Below, in pieces: positions 8,005-63,411 of a stretch of 64,000 nucleotides of DNA. This stretch comes from a phage, in the sequence record PZ445437.1; one strand, 5' to 3'. The notes under the pieces were generated by a model. That model saw only the letters and a list, made by a program, of their open reading frames with translations, was not told where the DNA came from and made no database searches. The position numbers and the translations under genes are program-made. The first letter of the stretch is position 1. Every line of letters begins with the position of its first letter.

Positions 8005-8030
8005 TCTCTAACGATAGAAACACAATTTTA

Positions 8031-8060
8031 GGGAACCTTCGGGTTCCCTTTTTCTATTTT
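8031..8060 (+). terminator. rho-independent terminator after gene 23 (possibly bidirectional)
   Basis: GGGAACC-TTCG-GGTTCCC hairpin followed by TTTTTCTATTTT. Confidence 0.75.
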
Positions 8061-12852: not shown

Positions 12853-13533
12853 TTATTTTAATGTTACGAAAGAAGAATTGCGTGTTTCACGAATTAAAAC
12901 TGATCCGTCACGGTTAATGTAATAAATTAAGCTAAATAAAGTTTGGTGTGCTGACGCATGCTCAAAACTTGTTGGGTGAGATTTCCAATCCGGAGTTTCA
13001 GCAATCCATTGATAAATCCACCAAGGAACAGTGCAGAATCCTGGATTTTTTCCAATCAACTGAAGATTCGGGCTAAAGTTTTCCGGAAGAGTAAATACAG
13101 ACGGCTTTTCAGATTCAATAATCTCAGCTACAGCTTGTTCGAATTTTTCTTCAACAAAAGGAGTATCTTCAATCAAAACATCGGTATTTTCAGGAATTTT
13201 ATCCGTTTCTACTACTTCAATTTTAATGTCAGATTTAACTGGAGAATCAATCAGAAGTGCTGCTTCTGGATTGACTTCTTCATCGTCATATTTTAATCCC
13301 TCTGCGGCATCAGCAGCATCAATTAAGTCTTTAATAGATAACCCATCAGTCTCTGGCATAGGTTCACTAGCGAGCTTCTGGAGGGCTTCTTCAATATCAA
13401 CAACGATATTATCAAAAGATTTATTCTTTTTGACCTTTATACCAAACTGTTCAGCATATTCAGCTAGTTTAGCTTTAGCTTCTTTATTATCATCAAGAGC
13501 CTTCAGCTCTGCAATATAATCTTTATCTATCAT
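12853..13533 (-). CDS. inh: Inh, inhibitor of prohead protease gp21
   Basis: 226-aa ORF at T4 inh position, acidic N-terminal half. Confidence 0.85.
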   Translation of the reverse strand: MIDKDYIAELKALDDNKEAKAKLAEYAEQFGIKVKKNKSFDNIVVDIEEALQKLASEPMPETDGLSIKDLIDAADAAEGLKYDDEEVNPEAALLIDSPVKSDIKIEVVETDKIPENTDVLIEDTPFVEEKFEQAVAEIIESEKPSVFTLPENFSPNLQLIGKNPGFCTVPWWIYQWIAETPDWKSHPTSFEHASAHQTLFSLIYYINRDGSVLIRETRNSSFVTLK

Positions 13534-23625: not shown

Positions 23626-23655
23626 GGGGACCGAAAGGTCCCCATATTTTTATTT
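23626..23655 (+). terminator. rho-independent terminator after gene 54
   Basis: GGGGACC-GAAA-GGTCCCC hairpin + ATATTTTTATTT. Confidence 0.7.
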
Positions 23656-23940
23656 ACGGAATGAAATAAAAGCAGCAACTGAAGCAACTAAACTGTCTTC
23701 AATATAAACTTCAATTTTTACCGGAGCTTCTGACTCAAATTTACCTGTTACTACACCTTGGAAAATGCTTTCAGTCTGTTCTGGCTTTGAAAAATTTTCA
23801 GAAGGAAAAATTCCGAACTTTTTATCTGTTCCAAAAATTTTGATAAATTCATCATAAACTGCTTCATTAAAAGCGTTATCAGCAGGAATAACGCCTTCAA
23901 CTACAAGTTCTTGACCTAAAAAGCGTAAAGAAGATTTCAT
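23650..23940 (-). CDS. hypothetical protein (T4 alt.-3 position)
   Basis: 96-aa ORF with ATG and GAGGA SD, downstream of the Alt genes. Confidence 0.75.
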   Translation of the reverse strand: MKSSLRFLGQELVVEGVIPADNAFNEAVYDEFIKIFGTDKKFGIFPSENFSKPEQTESIFQGVVTGKFESEAPVKIEVYIEDSLVASVAAFISFRK

Positions 23941-23971
23941 TTTATGTTCCTCATGTTATGTCAGTAAGATT

Positions 23972-24000
23972 ATTATAACACAACACGAGGGACTTGTAAA
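23972..24000 (-). promoter_or_regulatory. sigma70-type early promoter (TTTACA-17-TATAAT) for the alt.-3-position gene
   Basis: minus strand GTTTACA agtccctcgtgttgtgt TATAAT; 54-bp cassette duplicated at 39254-39307. Confidence 0.65.
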
Positions 24001-26058
24001 CTACATCTTGAACTTTTTAGACATTCCGTTGATGTTAACCAAAGAAGCCAAGATTTGAGAAACTTCGTTTTCCTCTTCTTTTGATTCTTCTACAAGGAAT
24101 TGATTAAACCCGGCCATTGGACGAACTTCGCCAGTTTCCATTAGATGATCGCCATCATATACCGATTCTTCTAATTGTTCAGAAGGAGGAACGATTGTGC
24201 CTTCGATTAGATACTTGTTATAAGCAGTTTCTTTCATCATGTACGTGCTTACTTTATTAATCTTCAACAAAATTCCACGCGGTAGAATAACTTCAGCTTC
24301 TGATGGAAATCCTGATAAATGACCTGGAACGATAACTTTGATTCGCTCAGCTCCTTTAATTACCATACCCACGCTAGTTTCAGCATCTTCATTAGCATAT
24401 GTAGAATGACTACCCATATGCATCAAATCTTCTGCATCAACAGAACCTTCTCCTTCGCCAGAAAATACTGCACCGGAATCATCTAGAGCCATATAGTTTT
24501 TACCATGCTCACCGAAGATATTTGGTTTAAGTGATGTCGATACGAAGTTCTTGAAATAGAACATTTTATTTTCAATATTGTGACGCAAAGTTTTAAAGGT
24601 AACTTCTTGTCCACGGTAAAGTGTAGTTCCTGGAGGAAGAACTGAACCTTTAGCGAATGCAGAATCCAGCGTCTCAATATGTTTAATAGCTCGTTCCATA
24701 TATTCTTCACGGGTAGAATCTGGTTTACCCAAAAGGAACGAGTTCATTTCAACATATGAATCTGCGCAATAATCTTCAATTACGTCAGATTCAGCCTGAG
24801 TTAATCCTTTTGGAGTTACTTCAGTACTTGCATATTCATATGCCTGAGCGGCAGATTCATTAATCAATTTATAAATGCCATTCATGACAAATTGAATAAT
24901 AGCTGTCTTTTCATCTGGCGTAGCTTTAGAACCTTTAACTAAATCATTGATAATTTTCTTAATAACATCAAAACTATTAGAAATATTAATATCAGCAAGA
25001 TCGCTTAAAATTTTATCAGTTTTATAATCAAAGAATTCTTTATTCTTTAAATATTCTTGAGAACCTTGATATGATGTATCGCTCTGCAACTTGATAGATG
25101 GATCACGTAAACGCGCATGGGCTAATGCAATATGATTTCGGAAGTTTTCTAGTTCATAATCGTTAGATTTAAAACGAGAAGCACTTCTCATACCACCGAT
25201 AGCTCCTTTGCCGAAGTTTGAACCAATCTGAATAACGCCAGAGTTCATTGGTCCTTCTGCTTTATATACCGGAACTTTGGATTCAAACTCTTGATATTTC
25301 TTAGCAGCGAAGCTATCACCCTGAAGTGAAGCATCAACAGTAGAATATTGAGCTTGTGCTGCTAATCGACGACTAATTTTAGTTTTCTGAATAACAGCTT
25401 GATCCGTGCGCTTATCATTTTCCAAAGCAATAGAAGCAGCAACTGCGACAGCTTTAGGAACAGCATTACCTGTTTTAACGTCTACATAAACATCACCAAC
25501 CTTTGATTCAACTTTTGTGAATAACTCAGTTGAAATAGGAGGTACACCTGGAATGTCTTCTAAATTGGCATTTTTACGGTAAACCATAATATATGCATAT
25601 TTCTTATCATAGTCCCAGATTTCCTTTAAAAGAACATATCGACCTGCTCCTTTAGTACGTACTAAACGGTCAGCAATAACTTGCATTTGACGAGCAGCGC
25701 CATTTGTTTTACTCTTTAGTACGCGGAATAAGCATGCATCAATTTTATACTGTTTCATTGTTTGAAGAGCAGTATCAAAAACAGCATTAATGACGCCAAT
25801 TGGATTTCCACCCAAGTTTTTAAGCTTAACTAATGATAGTTTCTCATTAACACCTATCATTACGATATGCATCATTTTGTCGCCTGGCTTAACGTTTTTA
25901 TTCGTATCACCGCCAGAGGTGTATGTACAAAATCTAAATCCAGGAAGCACGCTTTCTTCACCGGCTTGAATAGCAAAAATTTGTGGTATTTTATGCTTAG
26001 GATTTAAGTTAACAACCGGCGCCGAAGCGCCGTCAAATAATTCTGTAATAAGTTCCAT
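24001..26058 (-). CDS. Alt-like ADP-ribosyltransferase, second paralog (packaged internal protein type)
   Basis: 685-aa ORF; N-terminus MELITELFD...NLNPKHKIPQIF near-identical to Alt; C-terminal R (LYRGQ), FVSTSL and EAEVILPRG motifs. Confidence 0.85.
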   Translation of the reverse strand: MELITELFDGASAPVVNLNPKHKIPQIFAIQAGEESVLPGFRFCTYTSGGDTNKNVKPGDKMMHIVMIGVNEKLSLVKLKNLGGNPIGVINAVFDTALQTMKQYKIDACLFRVLKSKTNGAARQMQVIADRLVRTKGAGRYVLLKEIWDYDKKYAYIMVYRKNANLEDIPGVPPISTELFTKVESKVGDVYVDVKTGNAVPKAVAVAASIALENDKRTDQAVIQKTKISRRLAAQAQYSTVDASLQGDSFAAKKYQEFESKVPVYKAEGPMNSGVIQIGSNFGKGAIGGMRSASRFKSNDYELENFRNHIALAHARLRDPSIKLQSDTSYQGSQEYLKNKEFFDYKTDKILSDLADINISNSFDVIKKIINDLVKGSKATPDEKTAIIQFVMNGIYKLINESAAQAYEYASTEVTPKGLTQAESDVIEDYCADSYVEMNSFLLGKPDSTREEYMERAIKHIETLDSAFAKGSVLPPGTTLYRGQEVTFKTLRHNIENKMFYFKNFVSTSLKPNIFGEHGKNYMALDDSGAVFSGEGEGSVDAEDLMHMGSHSTYANEDAETSVGMVIKGAERIKVIVPGHLSGFPSEAEVILPRGILLKINKVSTYMMKETAYNKYLIEGTIVPPSEQLEESVYDGDHLMETGEVRPMAGFNQFLVEESKEEENEVSQILASLVNINGMSKKFKM

Positions 26059-26061
26059 GAT

Positions 26062-28158
26062 TTATCCTTGAACGAACTTGTAAGGCATGTTTGTAATATC
26101 TATGCAAGACGCAATAATTCCAAGAGATGATTCTACTTTCTGTTTAACGTTTGATGAAACAAATGATGCAAAGTCAACTCTGTCTTCTATTTCAATATCA
26201 CCTGTCATTGCAACTACTTCGCCGGTTTCCATTAAATGGTCTCCATCATAGATTACCGATTCGGTGAGCTCTTCCGTGGTCATAACTTCAGCTTGAATGA
26301 GTTTTGTATTATTAGACGTGGTTCCGTCATTATTAGAAGCATCAGTTATTTTATTAACTTTGACCATCAATCCGCGCGGTAGAATAACTTCAGCTTCTGT
26401 TGCTATTCCGAGACTTCCTGGATATACAACATTAACTTTATGAGCTCCATCAATTGCCCATCCTATTTGAACTTTAACGTATTCAGGATTTTCTTTATAC
26501 GCTCTTATTTCGTTTGGATTAATAGTTATTCCTTCTTCATTTTTATCAACTGTCAATTCATTACGAGCTTCTGGTTCTAAAAGACCAATACCAGCATGTG
26601 TAATTCCAAAACGTCCAAAAATGATAGGAGTTAAAGAAGTAGATACAAAATTTCTGAAATAGAACACTTTATTTTTAACTAGTGCTTCGTATATAGGAGC
26701 AGTCATACTTTGAGCACGATAAACTGTGATGCCTTCCGGTATGCGGTCACCATTTTCAAAAGCTGAATCTAAGTTATTTATAGCAGATTCAATTTCTTTT
26801 TCACTCATTACATCATATCGTTCTGGATTGTAACGACCTAAAAGAAGATTATTGATGTCAGTATATCCTGAACCACAATATTCTCTAATGCCACGCTTTT
26901 GTGATGGAGTATATTTAGAACCATCGCGGGCAATAGTAATATCAATCATTGGACCAGCACCAATTCCAGAAAAACTGTAAATCATTCGTTTGAGGAATTT
27001 AGTTTTTGCTGCGTTCCAGGAATTTTTAGTTATTTCTTCCCAGACTTCATCTGGTTGTCCTTTACGATTTTTATTATGATTAGCAAGCCATTTATCTTTA
27101 TAATCTTCAAAGAATTGATTTACAGCTGCTGCGTATTTCTCTAAACATTTTATTGAAGTAGTTGGTTCATTTTTAATTGCATTAAAAATTACTTCTTTAA
27201 TTTTTTCTGAAACTTCACCGACTTGACTCATTGGAAAGAATTTATAATCATAGTGAAGTTCATCTGCCGTTCCTTCAGCAATAATTTTTGCTGCCTTTGT
27301 TTTAGAAGCTAATGAATTAATTCCAATTTTCATTTCTTCTGCTTCGGGAATTAAAGGTGCAGTAGCAGGTTTATTGAAATTAGCTGCGGTAGATTCATAC
27401 TTCTGGAATAATTCACTTTCAAATCTAGAAGATTCCAATGATTGACTTTGCGCAATTGCTCTACGGGAAATTTTAACTTTAACGATTACAGCTTGGTCAG
27501 AACGTTTATCATTTTCTTGTGCAATAGATGCTGCAATTGCCTCATTTTTAGTTACTTGAGCTCCAGTATCTTTATTGATATAAACATCGCCGACTTTCGA
27601 TTCAACTTTAGTAAAGAGCTCGGTACTAATTTCCGGAACTCCTGGAATGTCTTCTAGTGATACATTTTTGCGATGTATAAGAATATATGCATACTTTTTA
27701 TCATAATCCCAGAGTTCCTTAAGAAGGACGTATCTGCCACCTGAACGACTACGGATAAGTCTATCAGCAATAACTTGAATTTGTCGAGCTTGACCAGCGG
27801 TTTTAGACTTAAGAATACGAAGCATACAAGCATCAATTTTATACTGACGCATTGTTTGCATTGCAACAGTAAAAACTGAATTGATATAATTAATTGGGCT
27901 TGGACCGAGACCTTTTAATTTAGCAATTGAACCTTTGGCAGTTAATGTAAAAGGAACAATATGCATCATTTTATCGCCCATCTTTAAATCGCGATTAGTA
28001 TCACCTCCAGATGTATAGGTGCATAAACGAAAGCCTGGTTGTTCAATTGCATCATCAACACGAACTGAAAAAATTTGCGGTATTTTCTTCTTTGGATTTA
28101 AGTTTGTAATCGGAAGAGTAGTATCTTCGTCAAATAATTCTGTAATAAGTTCCATCAT
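26062..28158 (-). CDS. alt: Alt ADP-ribosyltransferase
   Basis: 698-aa ORF MMELITELFDEDTTLPITNLNPKKKIPQIFSV... recognised as T4 Alt; R (VYRAQ), FVSTSL, EAEVILPRG motifs. Confidence 0.93.
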   Translation of the reverse strand: MMELITELFDEDTTLPITNLNPKKKIPQIFSVRVDDAIEQPGFRLCTYTSGGDTNRDLKMGDKMMHIVPFTLTAKGSIAKLKGLGPSPINYINSVFTVAMQTMRQYKIDACMLRILKSKTAGQARQIQVIADRLIRSRSGGRYVLLKELWDYDKKYAYILIHRKNVSLEDIPGVPEISTELFTKVESKVGDVYINKDTGAQVTKNEAIAASIAQENDKRSDQAVIVKVKISRRAIAQSQSLESSRFESELFQKYESTAANFNKPATAPLIPEAEEMKIGINSLASKTKAAKIIAEGTADELHYDYKFFPMSQVGEVSEKIKEVIFNAIKNEPTTSIKCLEKYAAAVNQFFEDYKDKWLANHNKNRKGQPDEVWEEITKNSWNAAKTKFLKRMIYSFSGIGAGPMIDITIARDGSKYTPSQKRGIREYCGSGYTDINNLLLGRYNPERYDVMSEKEIESAINNLDSAFENGDRIPEGITVYRAQSMTAPIYEALVKNKVFYFRNFVSTSLTPIIFGRFGITHAGIGLLEPEARNELTVDKNEEGITINPNEIRAYKENPEYVKVQIGWAIDGAHKVNVVYPGSLGIATEAEVILPRGLMVKVNKITDASNNDGTTSNNTKLIQAEVMTTEELTESVIYDGDHLMETGEVVAMTGDIEIEDRVDFASFVSSNVKQKVESSLGIIASCIDITNMPYKFVQG

Positions 28159-32559: not shown

Positions 32560-32892
32560 TTATTTTACTACTTTCCAATGCTGCATGTCAAGTTTACCAA
32601 CTTTTTTCATCTTCTCAATTAAGCGTTCTGCACGTTGGCGAGCTGTAACATAATGCCATTCGCCTAATTCATTTTGTTCAATTTTTCCAACGATTACTGT
32701 ATTCAATTCATAAATCCAACCAGTAAAGAAATTATGAACTTGAATTGTAAAGGTGAAATCTGTTCCCATACCTTCTGTTGTTTCTACTTCAATAATATCA
32801 CCTTCAACTGCCATTAAGAACCACATAGTTTCATTATATTTACCATTGAAGCATTTAGTTTTAACTGCAGCGTTCAGATTAATCGTTTTCAT
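32560..32892 (-). CDS. hypothetical protein (T4 30.7 position)
   Basis: 110-aa ORF, ATG with AAGGAG SD. Confidence 0.7.
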   Translation of the reverse strand: MKTINLNAAVKTKCFNGKYNETMWFLMAVEGDIIEVETTEGMGTDFTFTIQVHNFFTGWIYELNTVIVGKIEQNELGEWHYVTARQRAERLIEKMKKVGKLDMQHWKVVK

Positions 32893-32919
32893 TTTATTCT
32901 CCTTTGTTTGTGTAAGATA

Positions 32920-32948
32920 ATACTATCACAAAGGAACTATACTGTAAA
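32920..32948 (-). promoter_or_regulatory. sigma70-type early promoter (TTTACA-17-TAGTAT) with inverted repeat covering spacer and SD
   Basis: minus TGTTTACA gtatagttcctttgtga TAGTAT; arms TCCTTTGT/ACAAAGGA at 32900-32907 and 32928-32935. Confidence 0.5.
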
Positions 32949-32968
32949 CAACTTTATGCAATCTTTGG

Positions 32969-35697: not shown

Positions 35698-35933
35698 AGT
35701 ACGCCATACACCCTTTGTGCTTCAACTAATCCATCAAAATCCAGTTTAAGATGCGATATTTGATCGCCATCACCTGGATTCACAATTACTAATACTGAAC
35801 GAGGAGTTTCGGTAATAACACGAACCGATGTTTCAGGAAATCGTTCAGAAACCTTATTTACCAATTCCTGAGCAAATAGTTTAACTTTTTCTTGGAATTC
35901 TTTAACAGTAATTGGTTTTTCACTTAGCAGCAT
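35694..35933 (-). CDS. hypothetical protein (cd.2 position)
   Basis: ORF-track TTG start replaced by ATG 35933 (MLLSEKPITVKEF...) with GAGGA SD. Confidence 0.6.
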   Translation of the reverse strand: MLLSEKPITVKEFQEKVKLFAQELVNKVSERFPETSVRVITETPRSVLVIVNPGDGDQISHLKLDFDGLVEAQRVYGVL

Positions 35934-35994
35934 TTTGTTTTCCTCATTTGTTTGGTAGAGCCATAATATCACAACTCTACCGTAAAGTAAACTA

Positions 35995-38402: not shown

Positions 38403-38752
38403 TTAGAAAGATCCTGGATGTCTTCTGCGAACTTGTTGAAGGAGTTGTTGATTTGTTTTTCAACCAATCCTGGCTTATGAGCCACCACATCCGCCTTCTT
38501 TGCGTCTTTGCGCAGTTTTTCATTTTCACGCTCAATAGCAGCAATTGCCTCACGATTTTTATTATTCATCGCATCAATATAATTATACTGAATTCGCAAA
38601 TTATTTAATGCTAAAGCGTTTTCATTGGCTGTTTTTGTAATTTCAGTAACTGATGTTTCTAATCTTTCTACCTTATTTTTTAAAATAATAGATGTTCCGC
38701 CCAACGCAATTACAATTAATAACAAGCCTGCTGTCGTATTACTTAATTGCAT
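38399..38752 (-). CDS. i-spanin (Rz-like): N-terminal TM helix + periplasmic coiled coil
   Basis: 117-aa ORF; hydrophobic segment AGLLLIVIALGGTSIIL then heptad-rich region; T4 equivalent recalled as pseT.3. Confidence 0.75.
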   Translation of the reverse strand: MQLSNTTAGLLLIVIALGGTSIILKNKVERLETSVTEITKTANENALALNNLRIQYNYIDAMNNKNREAIAAIERENEKLRKDAKKADVVAHKPGLVEKQINNSFNKFAEDIQDLSK

Positions 38753-39249
38753 AAAGTTTTAATAACCTCTATAATATCGTCTTGAGAAAGACCGTTAATT
38801 AAAATATGATGTTCAGCTGGAGATTTAGAAATTTTAAAGCATGCCGCAACATCTTCTGCCATATCTGATGCACTACGATTTGGATTACTAATTCCAAGAC
38901 GATGTTTTCCCGTCAAAGGATTAACGATGATATAACATTTGCAGCTATTGATATGAACATTAGGCTGAGTCTGATTAATGAATACTTCGCACTCATACTT
39001 AGCGAGTTGATTTTCTAAAAAGACTTTCATCTCCTCAACCGCATCAGGAAGCATATCACGGGCTTGCTCAAGACGACGATTTCGATATTCTTTAATGGTC
39101 GTTTTCCGCTTGACTTGCTTAGCTAAATCTTTCTTAAGATCGGTGATATATCCAACTCGACGATTTCCTTTGAATACAGAAATCCCATCTGTAGTATCAC
39201 CGTATGCTTCAACGACCATTTCAGTAGTAATAAGCTGTAAATCCATCAT
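38743..39249 (-). CDS. alc: Alc, inhibitor of host transcription
   Basis: 168-aa ORF at T4 alc position. Confidence 0.8.
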   Translation of the reverse strand: MMDLQLITTEMVVEAYGDTTDGISVFKGNRRVGYITDLKKDLAKQVKRKTTIKEYRNRRLEQARDMLPDAVEEMKVFLENQLAKYECEVFINQTQPNVHINSCKCYIIVNPLTGKHRLGISNPNRSASDMAEDVAACFKISKSPAEHHILINGLSQDDIIEVIKTLCN

Positions 39250-39277
39250 AAAGTCCTCATGTTATGTCAGTAAAACT

Positions 39278-39306
39278 ACTATAACACAACATGAGGGACT
39301 TGTAAA
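39278..39306 (-). promoter_or_regulatory. sigma70-type early promoter (TTTACA-17-TATAGT) for alc, second copy of duplicated cassette
   Basis: minus GTTTACA agtccctcatgttgtgt TATAGT; 50/54 identical to copy at 23948-24001. Confidence 0.65.
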
Positions 39307-39310
39307 CAGC

Positions 39311-40898
<1,588 letters not shown>

Positions 40899-40906
40899 AA
40901 TAAAAT

Positions 40907-40920
40907 GGGCCTTGCGGCCC
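40907..40920 (-). terminator. hairpin between nrdB stop and denA start (candidate attenuator)
   Basis: GGGCC-TTGC-GGCCC; followed on minus strand by AUUUUAUU and the denA ATG. Confidence 0.4.
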
Positions 40921-40925
40921 ACTCC

Positions 40926-41428
40926 TTAAAAGTATTTTTTAAAACTCATCATAACTTTATCATCAACATCATTATCAATCTGTGCAACAAGGTAAGATGA
41001 CAGTTCTACTTCTTGTGGCGCGGATTGAACATTATCAGAATTAAGATATTCACGAATCCAAGGATATGGATGTTTAACCGGAGCATCGGTAATTGGGCAT
41101 GGAAGACCACACTGTTTCATACGAGATACAGTTAAGTAATCAATAAAGCTCCACATGCTATTTGTATTTAATCCAGGAACATCGCCATCTTTAAATAAAT
41201 GAACTGCCCAATCTTTTTCTTGGCGGTTAACTTCCATAAAAATATCAACTGCTTCTTGTTCACACTCTTTGGCAATTTTAACCCATTCATCGCCGTCAGT
41301 GCCAAGTTGAAGTTGACGAATAATATATTGGGTGCCTTTAAGGTGAAGCTGTTCATCACGTGCAATGAACTTCATAATCTTGGCATTACCTTCCATGATT
41401 TCCATGTTCTTATGGAAGTTAAAGGTAC
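40926..41428 (-). CDS. nrdB: ribonucleotide reductase small subunit NrdB, exon 2
   Basis: C-terminal NrdB sequence (…MEIMEGNAKIMKFIARDEQLHLKG…); exon start inferred so that exon-1 T + GT gives Cys and intron ends in G. Confidence 0.8.
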
Positions 41429-42517
41429 CGTATGTTCGATTGAGCTCGCTAATTCTCAACCCGTTCTCTTATGAACTGCTGCATGTTACCATGCAGTCCA
41501 GACTATATCACAATCCCGGAGGGATTCTCCCCATTTCGAGTCGCTTGACCCTACGTCCGAAGACTAGTCGTTGAACCTTGTTTTGCAATTGTCGCCGTGC
41601 CATCGTTTATATGTTGATGGTGATAAATCTTTCTTACCACAATATGGACAATTCAATTGAATTCTATTTGGATTTAATTTACATCTGTCATTATGTTTTA
41701 GATAAAATCCAGGACCTTTACCAATGTGACCACAGAAATCACATGTGATTTCTTTTTGTGCAGGATGGGTCCCGTTCTTAACCATTTCTAATGTTTTTGC
41801 TGATGTTCTTTTCTTATGGTCTTCTGATAAGAAATGATGTGAACCGTCATTTACCCGTTTTGATTGAGTTTCTGACTGCATTTTACCACCGCAAAATACA
41901 TGAGTACCTTCTTTTATAGCTGCAATATTGCGTTCTTTAACTTTTGCAATATGCTCAGCTTGTTGAAAATTATGTATACCTAATGCAACTCTATTTAAAT
42001 TAGATTTACGCTGTATTTCACCATCTAAAAGATGAAATGTACCATTTTCTATCTTAGATTTAATAGAGGCAATATTTTTAGCTCGTACTTCAGGGATATT
42101 AAAAATCTGGATTTCTCTAGATTTTGCGGCTTTAGAAGCTAATTCAGAAATTTCTTCAGGAGAATATTTCATTCTAAGCTTTATAGCATGACAAGCCTGG
42201 TAATCTTTTTGAGCTAAATGTATATCATAATGTTCCTGTATAGAAAGGCACATCAAATTATCTAAATCATTATTTTCACGGTTACCGTCTTTATGATGGA
42301 TTTCGTATGTTCTTCCATCAGAATCTTTAGGTATAGGTCCGTTAGCATCTATCCAAATTTTTCTATAGTTCAATTGTGCATCCTCTTAAAAGTATAATCA
42401 TATTTATATTATACTAATTAAAGGTGCAAGCAAAACCTTGGCTGCTAGTTTTCCATAAAGGACTTTCCAGCAATTAAAGGAGTTTTCGATAAACGTTACC
42501 GTTTAAAGGCGCATTTT
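41429..42517 (-). mobile_element. group I self-splicing intron in nrdB carrying an HNH homing endonuclease gene
   Basis: nrdB reading frame interrupted for ~1089 bp; contains 269-aa HNH ORF; boundaries inferred (exon 1 ends in U, intron ends in G), not verified by structure. Confidence 0.7.
41564..42373 (-). CDS. I-TevIII: intron-encoded HNH homing endonuclease, I-TevIII-like (full length)
   Basis: 269-aa ORF with HNH motif EIHHKDGNRENNDLDNL and Cys-rich C-terminal zinc-finger-like region; start is TTG preceded by AAGAGGA SD. Confidence 0.85.
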   Translation of the reverse strand: MNYRKIWIDANGPIPKDSDGRTYEIHHKDGNRENNDLDNLMCLSIQEHYDIHLAQKDYQACHAIKLRMKYSPEEISELASKAAKSREIQIFNIPEVRAKNIASIKSKIENGTFHLLDGEIQRKSNLNRVALGIHNFQQAEHIAKVKERNIAAIKEGTHVFCGGKMQSETQSKRVNDGSHHFLSEDHKKRTSAKTLEMVKNGTHPAQKEITCDFCGHIGKGPGFYLKHNDRCKLNPNRIQLNCPYCGKKDLSPSTYKRWHGDNCKTRFND

Positions 42518-57620: not shown

Positions 57621-58736
57621 ATGGAAAAATTTATGGCAGAGTTTGGACAAGGATATGTCCAAACTCCATTTTTATCGGAAAGCAATTCAGTAAGATACAA
57701 AATAAGTATAGCGGGTTCTTGCCCGCTTTCTACTGCAGGACCATATGTTAAATTTCAGGATAATCCTGTAGGAAATCAAACATTTAGCGCAGGTCTTCAT
57801 TTAAGAGTTTTTGACCCTTTCACAGGAGCATTAGTTGATAGTAAGTCATATGCTTTTTCGACTTCAAATGATACTACATCAGCTGCTTTTGTTAGTTTCA
57901 TGAATTCTTTGACGAATAATCGAATTGTTGCTATATTAACTAACGGAAAGGTTAATTTTCCTCCTGAAGTAGTATCTTGGTTAAGAACCGCCGGAACGTC
58001 TGCCTTTCCATCTGATTCTATATTGTCAAGATTTGACGTATCATATGCTGCTTTTTATACTTCTTCTAAAAGAGCTATTGCATTAGAGCATGTTAAACTG
58101 AGTAATAGAAAAAGCACAGATGATTATCAAACTATTTTAGATGTTGTATTTGACAGTTTAGAAGACGTCGGAGCTACCGGATTTCCAAGAAGAACGTATG
58201 AAAGTGTTGAGCAATTTATGTCGGCAGTCGGTGGAACTAATAACGAAATTGCGAGATTGCCAACTTCAGCTGCTATAAGTAAATTATCTGATTATAATTT
58301 AATTCCTGGTGATGTTCTTTATCTTAAAGCACAGCTATATGCTGATGCTGATTTACTTGCTCTTGGAACTACGAATATATCCATTCGATTTTATAATGCA
58401 TCTAATGGATATATTTCCTCGACACAAGCTGAGTTTACTGGGCAAGCTGGGTCATGGGAATTAAAGGAAGATTATGTAGTTGTTCCAGAAAACGCAGTAG
58501 GATTTACGATATATGCACAAAGAACTGCGCAAGCTGGCCAAGGTGGCATGAGAAATTTAAGCTTTTCTGAAGTATCAAGAAACGGCGGTATTTCAAAACC
58601 TGCTGAATTTGGCGTCAATGGTATTCGTGTTAATTATATCTGTGAATCTGCTTCACCTCCGGATATAATGGTACTTCCTACGCAAGCATCGTCTAAAGCT
58701 GGTAAAGTGTTTGGACAAGAATTTAGAGAAGTTTAA
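57621..58736 (+). CDS. 35: long tail fibre hinge connector gp35
   Basis: 371-aa ORF at gene 35 position. Confidence 0.9.
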   Translation: MEKFMAEFGQGYVQTPFLSESNSVRYKISIAGSCPLSTAGPYVKFQDNPVGNQTFSAGLHLRVFDPFTGALVDSKSYAFSTSNDTTSAAFVSFMNSLTNNRIVAILTNGKVNFPPEVVSWLRTAGTSAFPSDSILSRFDVSYAAFYTSSKRAIALEHVKLSNRKSTDDYQTILDVVFDSLEDVGATGFPRRTYESVEQFMSAVGGTNNEIARLPTSAAISKLSDYNLIPGDVLYLKAQLYADADLLALGTTNISIRFYNASNGYISSTQAEFTGQAGSWELKEDYVVVPENAVGFTIYAQRTAQAGQGGMRNLSFSEVSRNGGISKPAEFGVNGIRVNYICESASPPDIMVLPTQASSKAGKVFGQEFREV

Positions 58737-58743
58737 ATTGAGG

Positions 58744-58769
58744 GAGCCTTCGGGTTCCCTTTTTCTTTA
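58744..58769 (+). terminator. rho-independent terminator after gene 35
   Basis: GGGAGCC-TTCG-GGTTCCC hairpin + TTTTTCTTT. Confidence 0.7.
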
Positions 58770-62400: not shown

Positions 62401-63411
62401 TCCGTTTTATTTCGAAATGACGGTGGAAGCTTCTATATTTTACTGACCGACAAAAACTCTTCAGACGGCGATAATAAAGCAACTGAAGGTGATTGGAATG
62501 GAAAACGACCATTTTCAATTGATATGACTGCTGGTACTGTTCGTCTTGGCGAAAATACTTCTTTTGGTAAAGATGTTACTATTGATGGAAGCATTAATTC
62601 ACGAGTTAAAGTTGTCGGACAGTGGAATGTTAGCTTTTCTGATATTTCAGATGTGACTCGTGACCGTTCTGCATTTTTAGTGAATACGGGTGGCATTTCC
62701 AAGACAAGTCAATCTTATTACCCGCTATTTTCTGGATACAGTTTTTTAACTGACGCAGGTTATCGACAATCGTTTGAATTTGGATGGTTAGGTGTTTCTG
62801 GTACTTGGCGTCAAGGCATTATTCGCATGCGTGGTGACAACCCATCGGGGCAACAGGCTCGTTGGACTTTTGATATGGACGGAACATTTTATGCTCCTAT
62901 ACTATCATGCGGATCTGCGAGAGCATTCGGTGTCAATGCATCAAATGGTCTCGGTGGAAACAGTATAACATTTGGTGATAGCGATACTGGTATTAAGCAA
63001 AATGGCGATGGATTATTAGACATATATGCGAACAGCGTACAAGTGTTCCGTTTCCAAAACGGTGATTTGTACTCATACAAAAATATAAATGCTCCAAACG
63101 TTTATATTCGTTCTGATATTCGTTTAAAATCCAACTTCAAACCTATCGAAAATGCACTTGATAAAGTTGAAAAACTTAACGGTGTCATTTACGATAAAGC
63201 TGAATACATCGGTGGAGAGGCAATTGAAACTGAAGCTGGTATTATAGCTCAAACGTTACAAGACGTTTTACCAGAAGCTGTCCGTGAAACAGAAGACAGT
63301 AAGGGTAATAAAATACTCACTGTTTCTTCTCAAGCCCAGATTGCTCTTCTAGTTGAAGCTGTGAAAACACTTTCTTCTCGTGTAAAAGAACTTGAATCTA
63401 AACTTATGTAA
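59473..63411 (+). CDS. 37: long tail fibre distal subunit gp37, T2-type with C-terminal intramolecular chaperone domain
   Basis: 1312-aa ORF; N-terminus [39 protein letters not shown] as gp37; C-terminal ~110 aa resemble autoproteolytic chaperone domains of other phage fibres. Confidence 0.93.

Follow-up and report, generated by a model that had tools for sequence, protein, structure and literature searches.

An early-promoter hairpin predicted to mask the alc ribosome-binding site in read-through transcripts of T4-type phages

In T4-type phages alc follows rnlA closely and has an early-type promoter of its own, which raises the question of whether alc is translated alike from RNA arriving from upstream and from RNA started at this promoter. 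The window analysed (the whole stretch of DNA) comprised 64,000 nt of phage record PZ445437.1, and the elements discussed here lie on its minus strand. Hundreds of Tequatrovirus (T4-type) genomes matched the region at 97-99% identity, and the matching records are annotated with rnlA, for RNA ligase 1, and after it alc, for an inhibitor of host transcription. The features of this locus were as follows.

39311-40471, minus strand: rnlA, open reading frame with annotated matches in hundreds of Tequatrovirus records.
39311-39313, minus strand: rnlA stop codon TAA, 4 nt before the -35 hexamer, 3 nt before GTTTACA and 10 nt before the hairpin 5' arm.
39301-39307, minus strand: -35 element GTTTACA of the alc early-type (sigma-70) promoter, from a promoter scan; invariant in all aligned relatives.
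39284-39300, minus strand: hairpin 5' arm, which is the 17-nt promoter spacer AGTCCCTCATGTTGTGT; it holds the segment CCCTC, complementary to the Shine-Dalgarno (SD) sequence, and its final TGT is the extended -10.
39278-39283, minus strand: -10 hexamer TATAGT, inside the hairpin loop (sequence, folding and promoter scan).
39271, minus strand: predicted transcription start, an A 7 nt past the -10, placed by geometry only.
39252-39267, minus strand: hairpin 3' arm ACATAACATGAGGACT with the alc SD GAGGA at 39254-39258 (sequence and folding).
38743-39249, minus strand: alc coding sequence, open reading frame with Pfam domain ALC (PF17527) and tandem ATGs at 39249 and 39246.

The minus strand read GTTTACA-AGTCCCTCATGTTGTGT-TATAGT-AGTTTTACTG-ACATAACATGAGGACT-TTATGATG, and the 61-nt spacer between rnlA and alc, with its bordering codons, was TAA-GCT-GTTTACA-AGTCCCTCATGTTGTGT-TATAGT-AGTTTTACTG-ACATAACATGAGGACT-TT-ATGATG. 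The promoter scan described the alc promoter as TTTACA-17-TATAGT with a TGn extended -10 (10 of 12 matches). The first-pass annotation of this DNA had proposed an inverted repeat here, and the sequence bore this out: the arms at 39284-39300 and 39252-39267 paired over 16 bp with one bulged C and one G-U pair, the SD GAGGA lay inside the 3' arm, and the 16-nt loop carried the -10 hexamer TATAGT. Since the 5' arm is the promoter spacer, transcripts of the alc promoter cannot contain it, wherever their +1 falls. With the predicted +1 at 39271 the leader would measure 22-25 nt, a length conserved in all relatives examined. The gene begins with a tandem ATG ATG (39244-39249, minus strand); the second ATG is the start annotated in T4, and ATA replaces the first one in phage UFV05, so that translation of alc probably begins at the second codon of the pair (39246), 7 nt after GAGGA. 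Some 30 nt before the hairpin, still in the 3'-terminal part of rnlA, the sequence TATAAAAA (39333-39340, minus strand) differed by one mismatch from the late-promoter consensus TATAAATA. This site is annotated as late-promoter-like in phage ASO78A, and a transcript started there would carry the entire hairpin.

Predicted RNA structure clearly differed between the two kinds of transcript. For read-through RNA, RNAfold gave a hairpin of about 22 bp with an MFE of -27.7 kcal/mol (z = -6.5; none of 200 dinucleotide shuffles was as good), which persisted with 40, 60 or 100 nt of upstream context, whereas the leader beginning at the predicted +1 reached only -3.2 kcal/mol, no better than shuffles. 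The contrast that had been anticipated between a stable hairpin and an essentially unstructured leader was thus obtained in the predictions. The cost of opening the ribosome site, taken as the ensemble energy needed to unpair positions -18 to +12 around the start, was 27.5 kcal/mol in alc read-through RNA vs. 4.0 kcal/mol in promoter-started RNA. By the same measure the proven hairpin of T4 gene e required 17.5 kcal/mol, with a masking effect (ddG) of 13.5-16.2 kcal/mol as compared to 21-23.5 kcal/mol for alc. No match at gathering score was found in Rfam 15 (best score 22 bits vs. a gathering score of 60; all E-values ≥ 0.8).

The same arrangement had been noted at 23948-24001, upstream of the alt.-3 homologue, and this region turned out to be a near-copy of the alc element with a stable fold of its own (MFE -21.4 kcal/mol, z = -4.0 vs. 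dinucleotide shuffles, 0 of 200 as good). Opening its ribosome site cost 21.8 kcal/mol in read-through RNA and 5.7 kcal/mol in promoter-started RNA.

26062-28158, minus strand: first alt paralogue, in tandem with the second.
24001-26058, minus strand: second alt paralogue, with an ADP-ribosyltransferase domain.
23995-24003, minus strand: stop codon TAG of the second alt paralogue (24001-24003), abutting the alt.-3 -35 hexamer TTTACA (23995-24000).
23978-23994, minus strand: alt.-3 5' arm and promoter spacer AGTCCCTCGTGTTGTGT (sequence and folding).
23972-23977, minus strand: alt.-3 -10 hexamer TATAAT, in the loop (sequence and folding).
23948-23961, minus strand: alt.-3 3' arm ACATAACATGAGGA with the SD GAGGA at 23948-23952 (sequence and folding).
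23650-23940, minus strand: alt.-3 homologue, 96 aa, DUF5498 / phrog_1739, of unknown function.

Together the alc and alt.-3 sites constituted a 54-nt direct repeat (93% identical), and nothing similar was found elsewhere within the window. Exactly two copies of the cassette per genome occurred in about 499 Tequatrovirus records, T4 included, and the two T4 copies presented one difference in 54 nt. The alt.-3 copy adjoins a variable region, occupied by a full second alt in the window and by the remnants alt.-1 and alt.-2 in T4, which has a single alt. Both alt (ADP-ribosyltransferase) paralogues of the window were full-length (698 aa at 26062-28158 and 685 aa at 24001-26058), with DNA blocks 70-97% identical. 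The loop variant TATAATAATC appeared in the alt.-3 copy of the window (23972-23980) and in the alc copy of UFV05, and T4 had TATAGTAGTC at both loci; from such sequence variants, the alc and alt.-3 copies seem to exchange sequence by gene conversion or recombination, which is consistent with PeSL-like behaviour. A covariance model (R1) run against all loci recovered the alc and alt.-3 elements as well as that of regB described below; its alignment (A4) included reverse-strand matches and other early promoters and was excluded from the pair counts. The model built from the alc cassettes also matched window positions 32890-32949 and 35931-35992, L052:8159-8218 and L053:20553-20613. These additional matches fell in early-promoter/RBS regions upstream of 30.8, an ORF of the cd region, motB.2 and denV, and they probably reflect a common promoter-leader frame. 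Another repeat of the window consisted of two terminator-like elements AAUUUNAGGGANCCUUCGGGUUCCCUUUUUCU (8024-8055 and 58735-58766; 91% identical, 50.7 kb apart), each with a G/C stem and a UUCG loop followed by a U-run.

These predictions suggest how the cassette would operate. Its parts are arranged in the order stop codon, GTTTACA, 17-nt spacer, -10, leader of about 22 nt, SD and ATG, with the promoter spacer doubling as an anti-Shine-Dalgarno arm. RNA polymerase coming from upstream, whether by early read-through, from the middle promoters of the nrd region or in late alt transcription, would copy both arms, and the SD-bearing 3' arm would be caught on emergence in a helix of 16-22 bp, keeping 30S subunits off. 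RNA from the own promoter would start in the loop; its leader would be unstructured, its SD accessible and its translation efficient. The net result would be that Alc and Alt.-3 are made solely for as long as the early promoters are active, during the first few minutes, and that early-promoter shut-off ends their synthesis despite continued transcription within longer RNAs. The structure, its stability, the promoter geometry, the evolutionary maintenance and the recurrence were computed in this work, whereas from them we infer the start site, the translational effect with its size, and the biological purpose. We assign a probability of roughly 0.65 to the reading that the hairpin masks the SD of alc and alt.-3 on read-through RNA and so restricts their translation to their own early promoter.

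Read-through into alc is to be expected, since no terminator-like site was found between rnlA and alc in a scan of 38500-41500 (minus strand) and the middle promoters PI-TevIII and PnrdB have been mapped upstream of denA-rnlA-alc (PMC2988021 Table 1). In time-resolved omics data, Alc, Alt.-3, RegB and ModB were classed as early proteins, and RnlA, encoded immediately upstream of alc, displayed early RNA and late protein (PMC9697503 supplements); this timing fits the gating model and is no proof of it. Two further influences on alc translation were set aside. Translational coupling by the terminating ribosome was discarded on the distance between the stop codon and the 5' arm (6-14 nt). A terminating ribosome reaches about as far as this or less far. 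Cleavage of the alc SD by RegB is not relevant in Tequatrovirus, because GAGGA contains no GGAG.

The pairing was then examined in a comparative set of 42 loci, obtained from viral contigs via Alc alignment, and six annotated genomes. Every one of these loci had a spacer close to 60 nt in length, in which GTTTACA is followed by 16-17 nt, TAnnnT and a leader of 21-25 nt. A significant hairpin with different arms was present in 22 of about 30 distinct rnlA-alc spacers (T4 relatives, Alc identity 46-60%; z mostly ≤ -4, ddG 8-23 kcal/mol), and paired but divergent arms were found in at least five genera (Karamvirus, Gelderlandvirus, Jiaodavirus, Dhakavirus and Tequatrovirus) and in several untyped lineages. 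Thus, the arms were UCUCCAUUUGGUU/AACCAAAUGGAGA in Karamvirus and Moon/Merlin-type phages, UCUCCGUUU/AAACGGAGA in Gelderlandvirus, UCCUCAUCAG/CUGAUGAGGA in Jiaodavirus and UCUCCUCAU/AUGAGGAGA in Dhakavirus, and two related untyped lineages differed as ACCUCUCAUUUUU vs. CCUCUCGUUUUUG. Within Tequatrovirus, variation was limited to the loop, the bulged C or the replacement of a G-U by an A-U pair. Stem length ranged from 9 to 22 bp between genera, and the SD formed the base of the helix in 22 of the 25 hairpin-bearing alc lineages, although with a leader of only about 22 nt the 3' arm overlaps the SD almost necessarily, so that its inclusion is weaker evidence than it appears.

Compensatory change was supported by several counts. 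In an alignment-free comparison, duplexes between cognate spacer and RBS reached -15 to -25 kcal/mol as compared to means of -6 to -13 kcal/mol for non-cognate combinations, and changes on both sides occurred at 13 of 15 promoter-anchored positions. In the formal count (promoter-anchored constructs with the loop trimmed and the 3'-arm register taken from each sequence's own fold), 92.2% of the cells were paired vs. 65.9% in shuffles (0 of 500), register-slid controls remained at 44-51%, 10 of 12 pairs had changed on both sides and the covariation score was 0.71 vs. 0.23 (0 of 500). The comparison of G-U pairs with A-C mismatches comprised few independent events. In a plain MAFFT alignment of 24 spacers the 3' arms of different genera do not fall in register, and RNAalifold accordingly returned no consensus structure. 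Judged from these sequences, the hairpin is a real feature, and compensatory changes have preserved its pairing in different phage genera.

Not every lineage carried the element in this form. Among the lineages examined, Mosigvirus and several others had no promoter-spanning hairpin upstream of alc. In three alc loci (L028 and L045, both about 545-600, and PEi20, L035, about 541-600) the hairpin spans the -10 and stops 3-5 nt before the SD, with small masking (ddG -0.7 to 4.5 kcal/mol). Gaprivervirus-type genomes (L020:528-560; also L021 and L048; cf. L006) have an extra short alc-like ORF upstream of alc, and before this ORF a terminator-like hairpin (GGGGUGUACAAGCCCC, then UUCUUUCU) with a -35-like TGTACA in the loop; to judge by its sequence, this element would seem to insulate at the equivalent position by acting on transcription and not on translation.

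The design recurred at other early promoters of T4. Among 31 pairs of sigma-70-like promoter and gene start, four reached a ddG of at least 12 kcal/mol (alc 21.2, alt.-3 17.4, regB 14.2 and modB 12.6), a value attained by 0.9% of the controls in which the upstream 80 nt had been shuffled (binomial P about 2e-4); since alc and alt.-3 are one duplicated sequence, the four cases amount to three independent events. The early promoter of regB, GTTTACT-TTTCCTCTTGACTGTGG-TATAAT...CAGTTAAGAGGAG, formed a hairpin of -22.4 kcal/mol (z -5.7) in which the spacer UUCCUCUUGACUG pairs with CAGUUAAGAGGAG, which holds the regB SD (L053:17938-17997, corresponding to T4 62740-62797). This pairing was kept with other arms in two lineages, CUCUAGUUG/CAACUAGAG and CUGUAAG/CUUACAG (L060 and L062-L065, about 336-403). 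At modB (T4 13130-13186; L052, minus strand) the early-promoter hairpin reached -18.0 kcal/mol (z -3.9); its 5' arm is the -10 hexamer plus discriminator, UAUGAUAGCUUC, its partner GGAGGCUAUCAUG comprises the SD and the start codon, and transcripts of the modB promoter itself are predicted to be without most of the 5' arm. At mobD.2 (T4 57932-57990) a hairpin spans the -10 of the early promoter and ends 3-5 nt before the SD (ddG 10.0 kcal/mol). The hairpins that miss the SD (mobD.2, L028, L045 and L035) were of -19 to -23 kcal/mol; they may point to a role independent of the SD and are the chief ground for keeping a non-translational reading under consideration. In Moon/Merlin-type genomes the alc (L022/L027) and regB (L063-L065) cassettes share GTTTACATCTCC...TTGTGTTACTAT...CTTACAC...GGAGAAACAAAATG, and their central arms differ in a complementary manner (ATTTGG/CCAAAT vs. 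TGTAAG/CTTACA), a pattern that suggests a family of paralogous cassettes. RegB is known to need tight, brief expression. The early-promoter hairpin probably represents one small class in T-even phages, of which the alc cassette is a member. All these factors taken together, namely opening costs, promoter geometry, compensatory change and recurrence at regB and modB, lent in silico support to the initial proposal that the SD is masked on read-through RNA.

Other explanations of the hairpin have to be weighed against SD masking. It could be a transcriptional insulator of the PeSL type, whose stem-loop attenuates or terminates upstream transcription and masks the SD incidentally. In RB49/phi1 the PeSL stem-loop is most often found in the interval from -35 to -10 or at a position overlapping the -10, and with one such stem-loop lacZ expression fell as it does with a strong terminator (PMC2839356 section 14); PeSLs have also been reported in the T4/PST pair (PMC4122927). 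The hairpins described above that span the -10 and miss the SD, and the terminator-like hairpin of Gaprivervirus, point in the same direction. The alc element, however, drew no call in the terminator scan, no U-tract follows the stem (alc CUUUAUGAUG, alt.-3 AACAUAAAAUG; A-rich in other genera), the stems are long and A/U-rich as compared to the G/C-rich stems of RB49, and the SD is the helix base in nearly all hairpin-bearing alc lineages. We therefore consider termination or attenuation unlikely as the main function of the alc hairpin, although attenuation of a non-canonical kind is conceivable. Insulation from upstream transcripts, transcriptional or translational, may nevertheless be the common theme, because hairpin positions vary like the five positional subclasses of PeSLs, which their discoverers read as terminators or attenuators. 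The hairpin could also serve in RNA processing or stability, as an RNase III site or as a protective 3' hairpin of the upstream rnlA or alt message, with loss of alc translation as a side effect. In length its stem (about 22 bp, one bulge) is compatible with an RNase III substrate, and the hairpin immediately follows the stop codon of the upstream gene in every lineage; against this, the upstream genes are unrelated (rnlA, alt and vs.3) whereas the downstream partner is always an SD, and with stems of 9-22 bp between genera many would be too short for RNase III, which makes this explanation improbable.

A structure at the DNA level, with the inverted repeat around the -10 extruding in supercoiled DNA or forming on single strands and thereby tuning the promoter or cassette recombination, would agree with the near identity of the two copies per genome, with the sharing of loop variants across loci, which suggests recombination between copies, and with the balance between strands when all lineages were pooled (sense more stable in 11, antisense in 12). 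As no consistent advantage of the sense strand exists across lineages, the comparative data do not prove an RNA-level over a DNA-level constraint. In Tequatrovirus and T4 regB, though, the sense RNA gains 5-9 kcal/mol over the antisense through its G-U pairs, and the hairpins were weak when folded as DNA: alc reached -13.3 and -10.9 kcal/mol, and alt.-3 reached -7.5 and -6.4 kcal/mol (z -2.4 and -1.5). A loop of 16 nt, moreover, disfavours cruciform extrusion. PeSLs are proposed recombination sites (PMC4122927, PMC2839356), and we still regard a DNA-level role for the alc hairpin as quite improbable. The hairpin might, finally, have no function at all, being a duplicated promoter/RBS cassette that is self-complementary by chance and conserved through the constraint on promoter and SD. 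The two copies of the window are indeed one duplicated sequence, and the -35, TGn, -10 and SD are constrained anyway. Chance self-complementarity is nonetheless very improbable: the arms diverge between genera yet stay complementary, including 5-10 bp past the SD, unrelated sequences at regB and modB share the design, and the enrichment over shuffles was significant.

SD masking on read-through RNA has close parallels in T4 itself. In e, soc, 49 and I-TevI (also I-TevII/III, segB and Aeh1 mobE) the SD and/or AUG is sequestered only on upstream transcripts (PMC3014915, PMC2988022), and a promoter inside the structure gives a shorter RNA without the 5' arm, which is translated in those genes and predicted to be so here. 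The gene e hairpin lowers lysozyme synthesis about 100-fold (PMC3014915 section 29), and the opening costs of alc and alt.-3 given above (27.5 and 21.8 vs. 17.5 kcal/mol) indicate comparable or greater stability. All the genes known to use internal-promoter hairpin gating are late genes according to a 2010 review (PMC2988022 section 12), whereas Alc and Alt.-3 are early proteins. Those late gates contain a late promoter of the gp55 type (TATAAATA), in contrast with the sigma-70 early promoter (GTTTACA-17-TAnnnT) found here, where the 5' arm of alc and alt.-3 is the promoter spacer itself; the gate would therefore select the first minutes of infection and not the last. The alc cassette would thus be an early-promoter variant of the T4 start-inside-the-hairpin logic, new with respect to the late-gene cases in the reviews. 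No published description of a promoter-embedded hairpin at alc, alt.-3, regB or modB was found, and an earlier mention is possible in the T4 genome review, the mobE or IS papers or the 1994 T4 book.

The cassettes also display the anatomy of PeSLs, with stop codon, strong sigma-70-like promoter, stem-loop, SD and ATG within about 60 nt (Arbiol et al. 2010; Comeau et al. 2014), and like these they are repeated within the genome and may be conserved enough to recombine. They differ in that PeSL stem-loops have been read as terminators or attenuators, without considering SD masking, whereas the alc 3' arm is the SD; the stems of RB49 are short and G/C-rich, and those of the T4/PST pair are described just upstream of the promoter. 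As compared with an intrinsic (Rho-independent) terminator, the alc element has neither the G+C-rich stem nor the direct U-run. A similar fold-back inhibition reportedly acts against external promoters in IS10, in what is said to be work of Davis, Simons and Kleckner from 1985, and in IS50, reportedly from the Reznikoff laboratory: transcripts from outside are said to pair the transposase RBS, and those of the own sigma-70 promoter to start inside and be translatable. There the arrangement is reportedly a transposon defence, in contrast with the temporal phage switch proposed here, and the sequences are not known to be related.

The shut-off of early T4 expression has been described in reviews as incompletely understood. 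We tentatively propose, at somewhat less than even odds, that early-promoter cassettes with spacers serving as anti-Shine-Dalgarno arms form a family in the Tevenvirinae and act as an "immediate-early only" gate for the briefly needed effectors Alc, RegB, ModB and Alt.-3; such cassettes may spread and homogenise by recombination as PeSLs do. If true, the gate would account for some of the shut-off of early protein synthesis, which is still poorly understood: production of these proteins would end while upstream middle and late promoters continue to transcribe their genes, and Alc, RegB and ModB would be confined to the first minutes although their genes sit within longer middle-period transcripts. 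PeSL-type cassettes would gain a second, translational meaning, and the cassette would constitute a portable design of about 60 nt that insulates a gene from read-through expression. In T4, a model for temporal gene control, the early-promoter gate would work in the opposite way to the late-gene hairpins of the reviews (PMC2988022).
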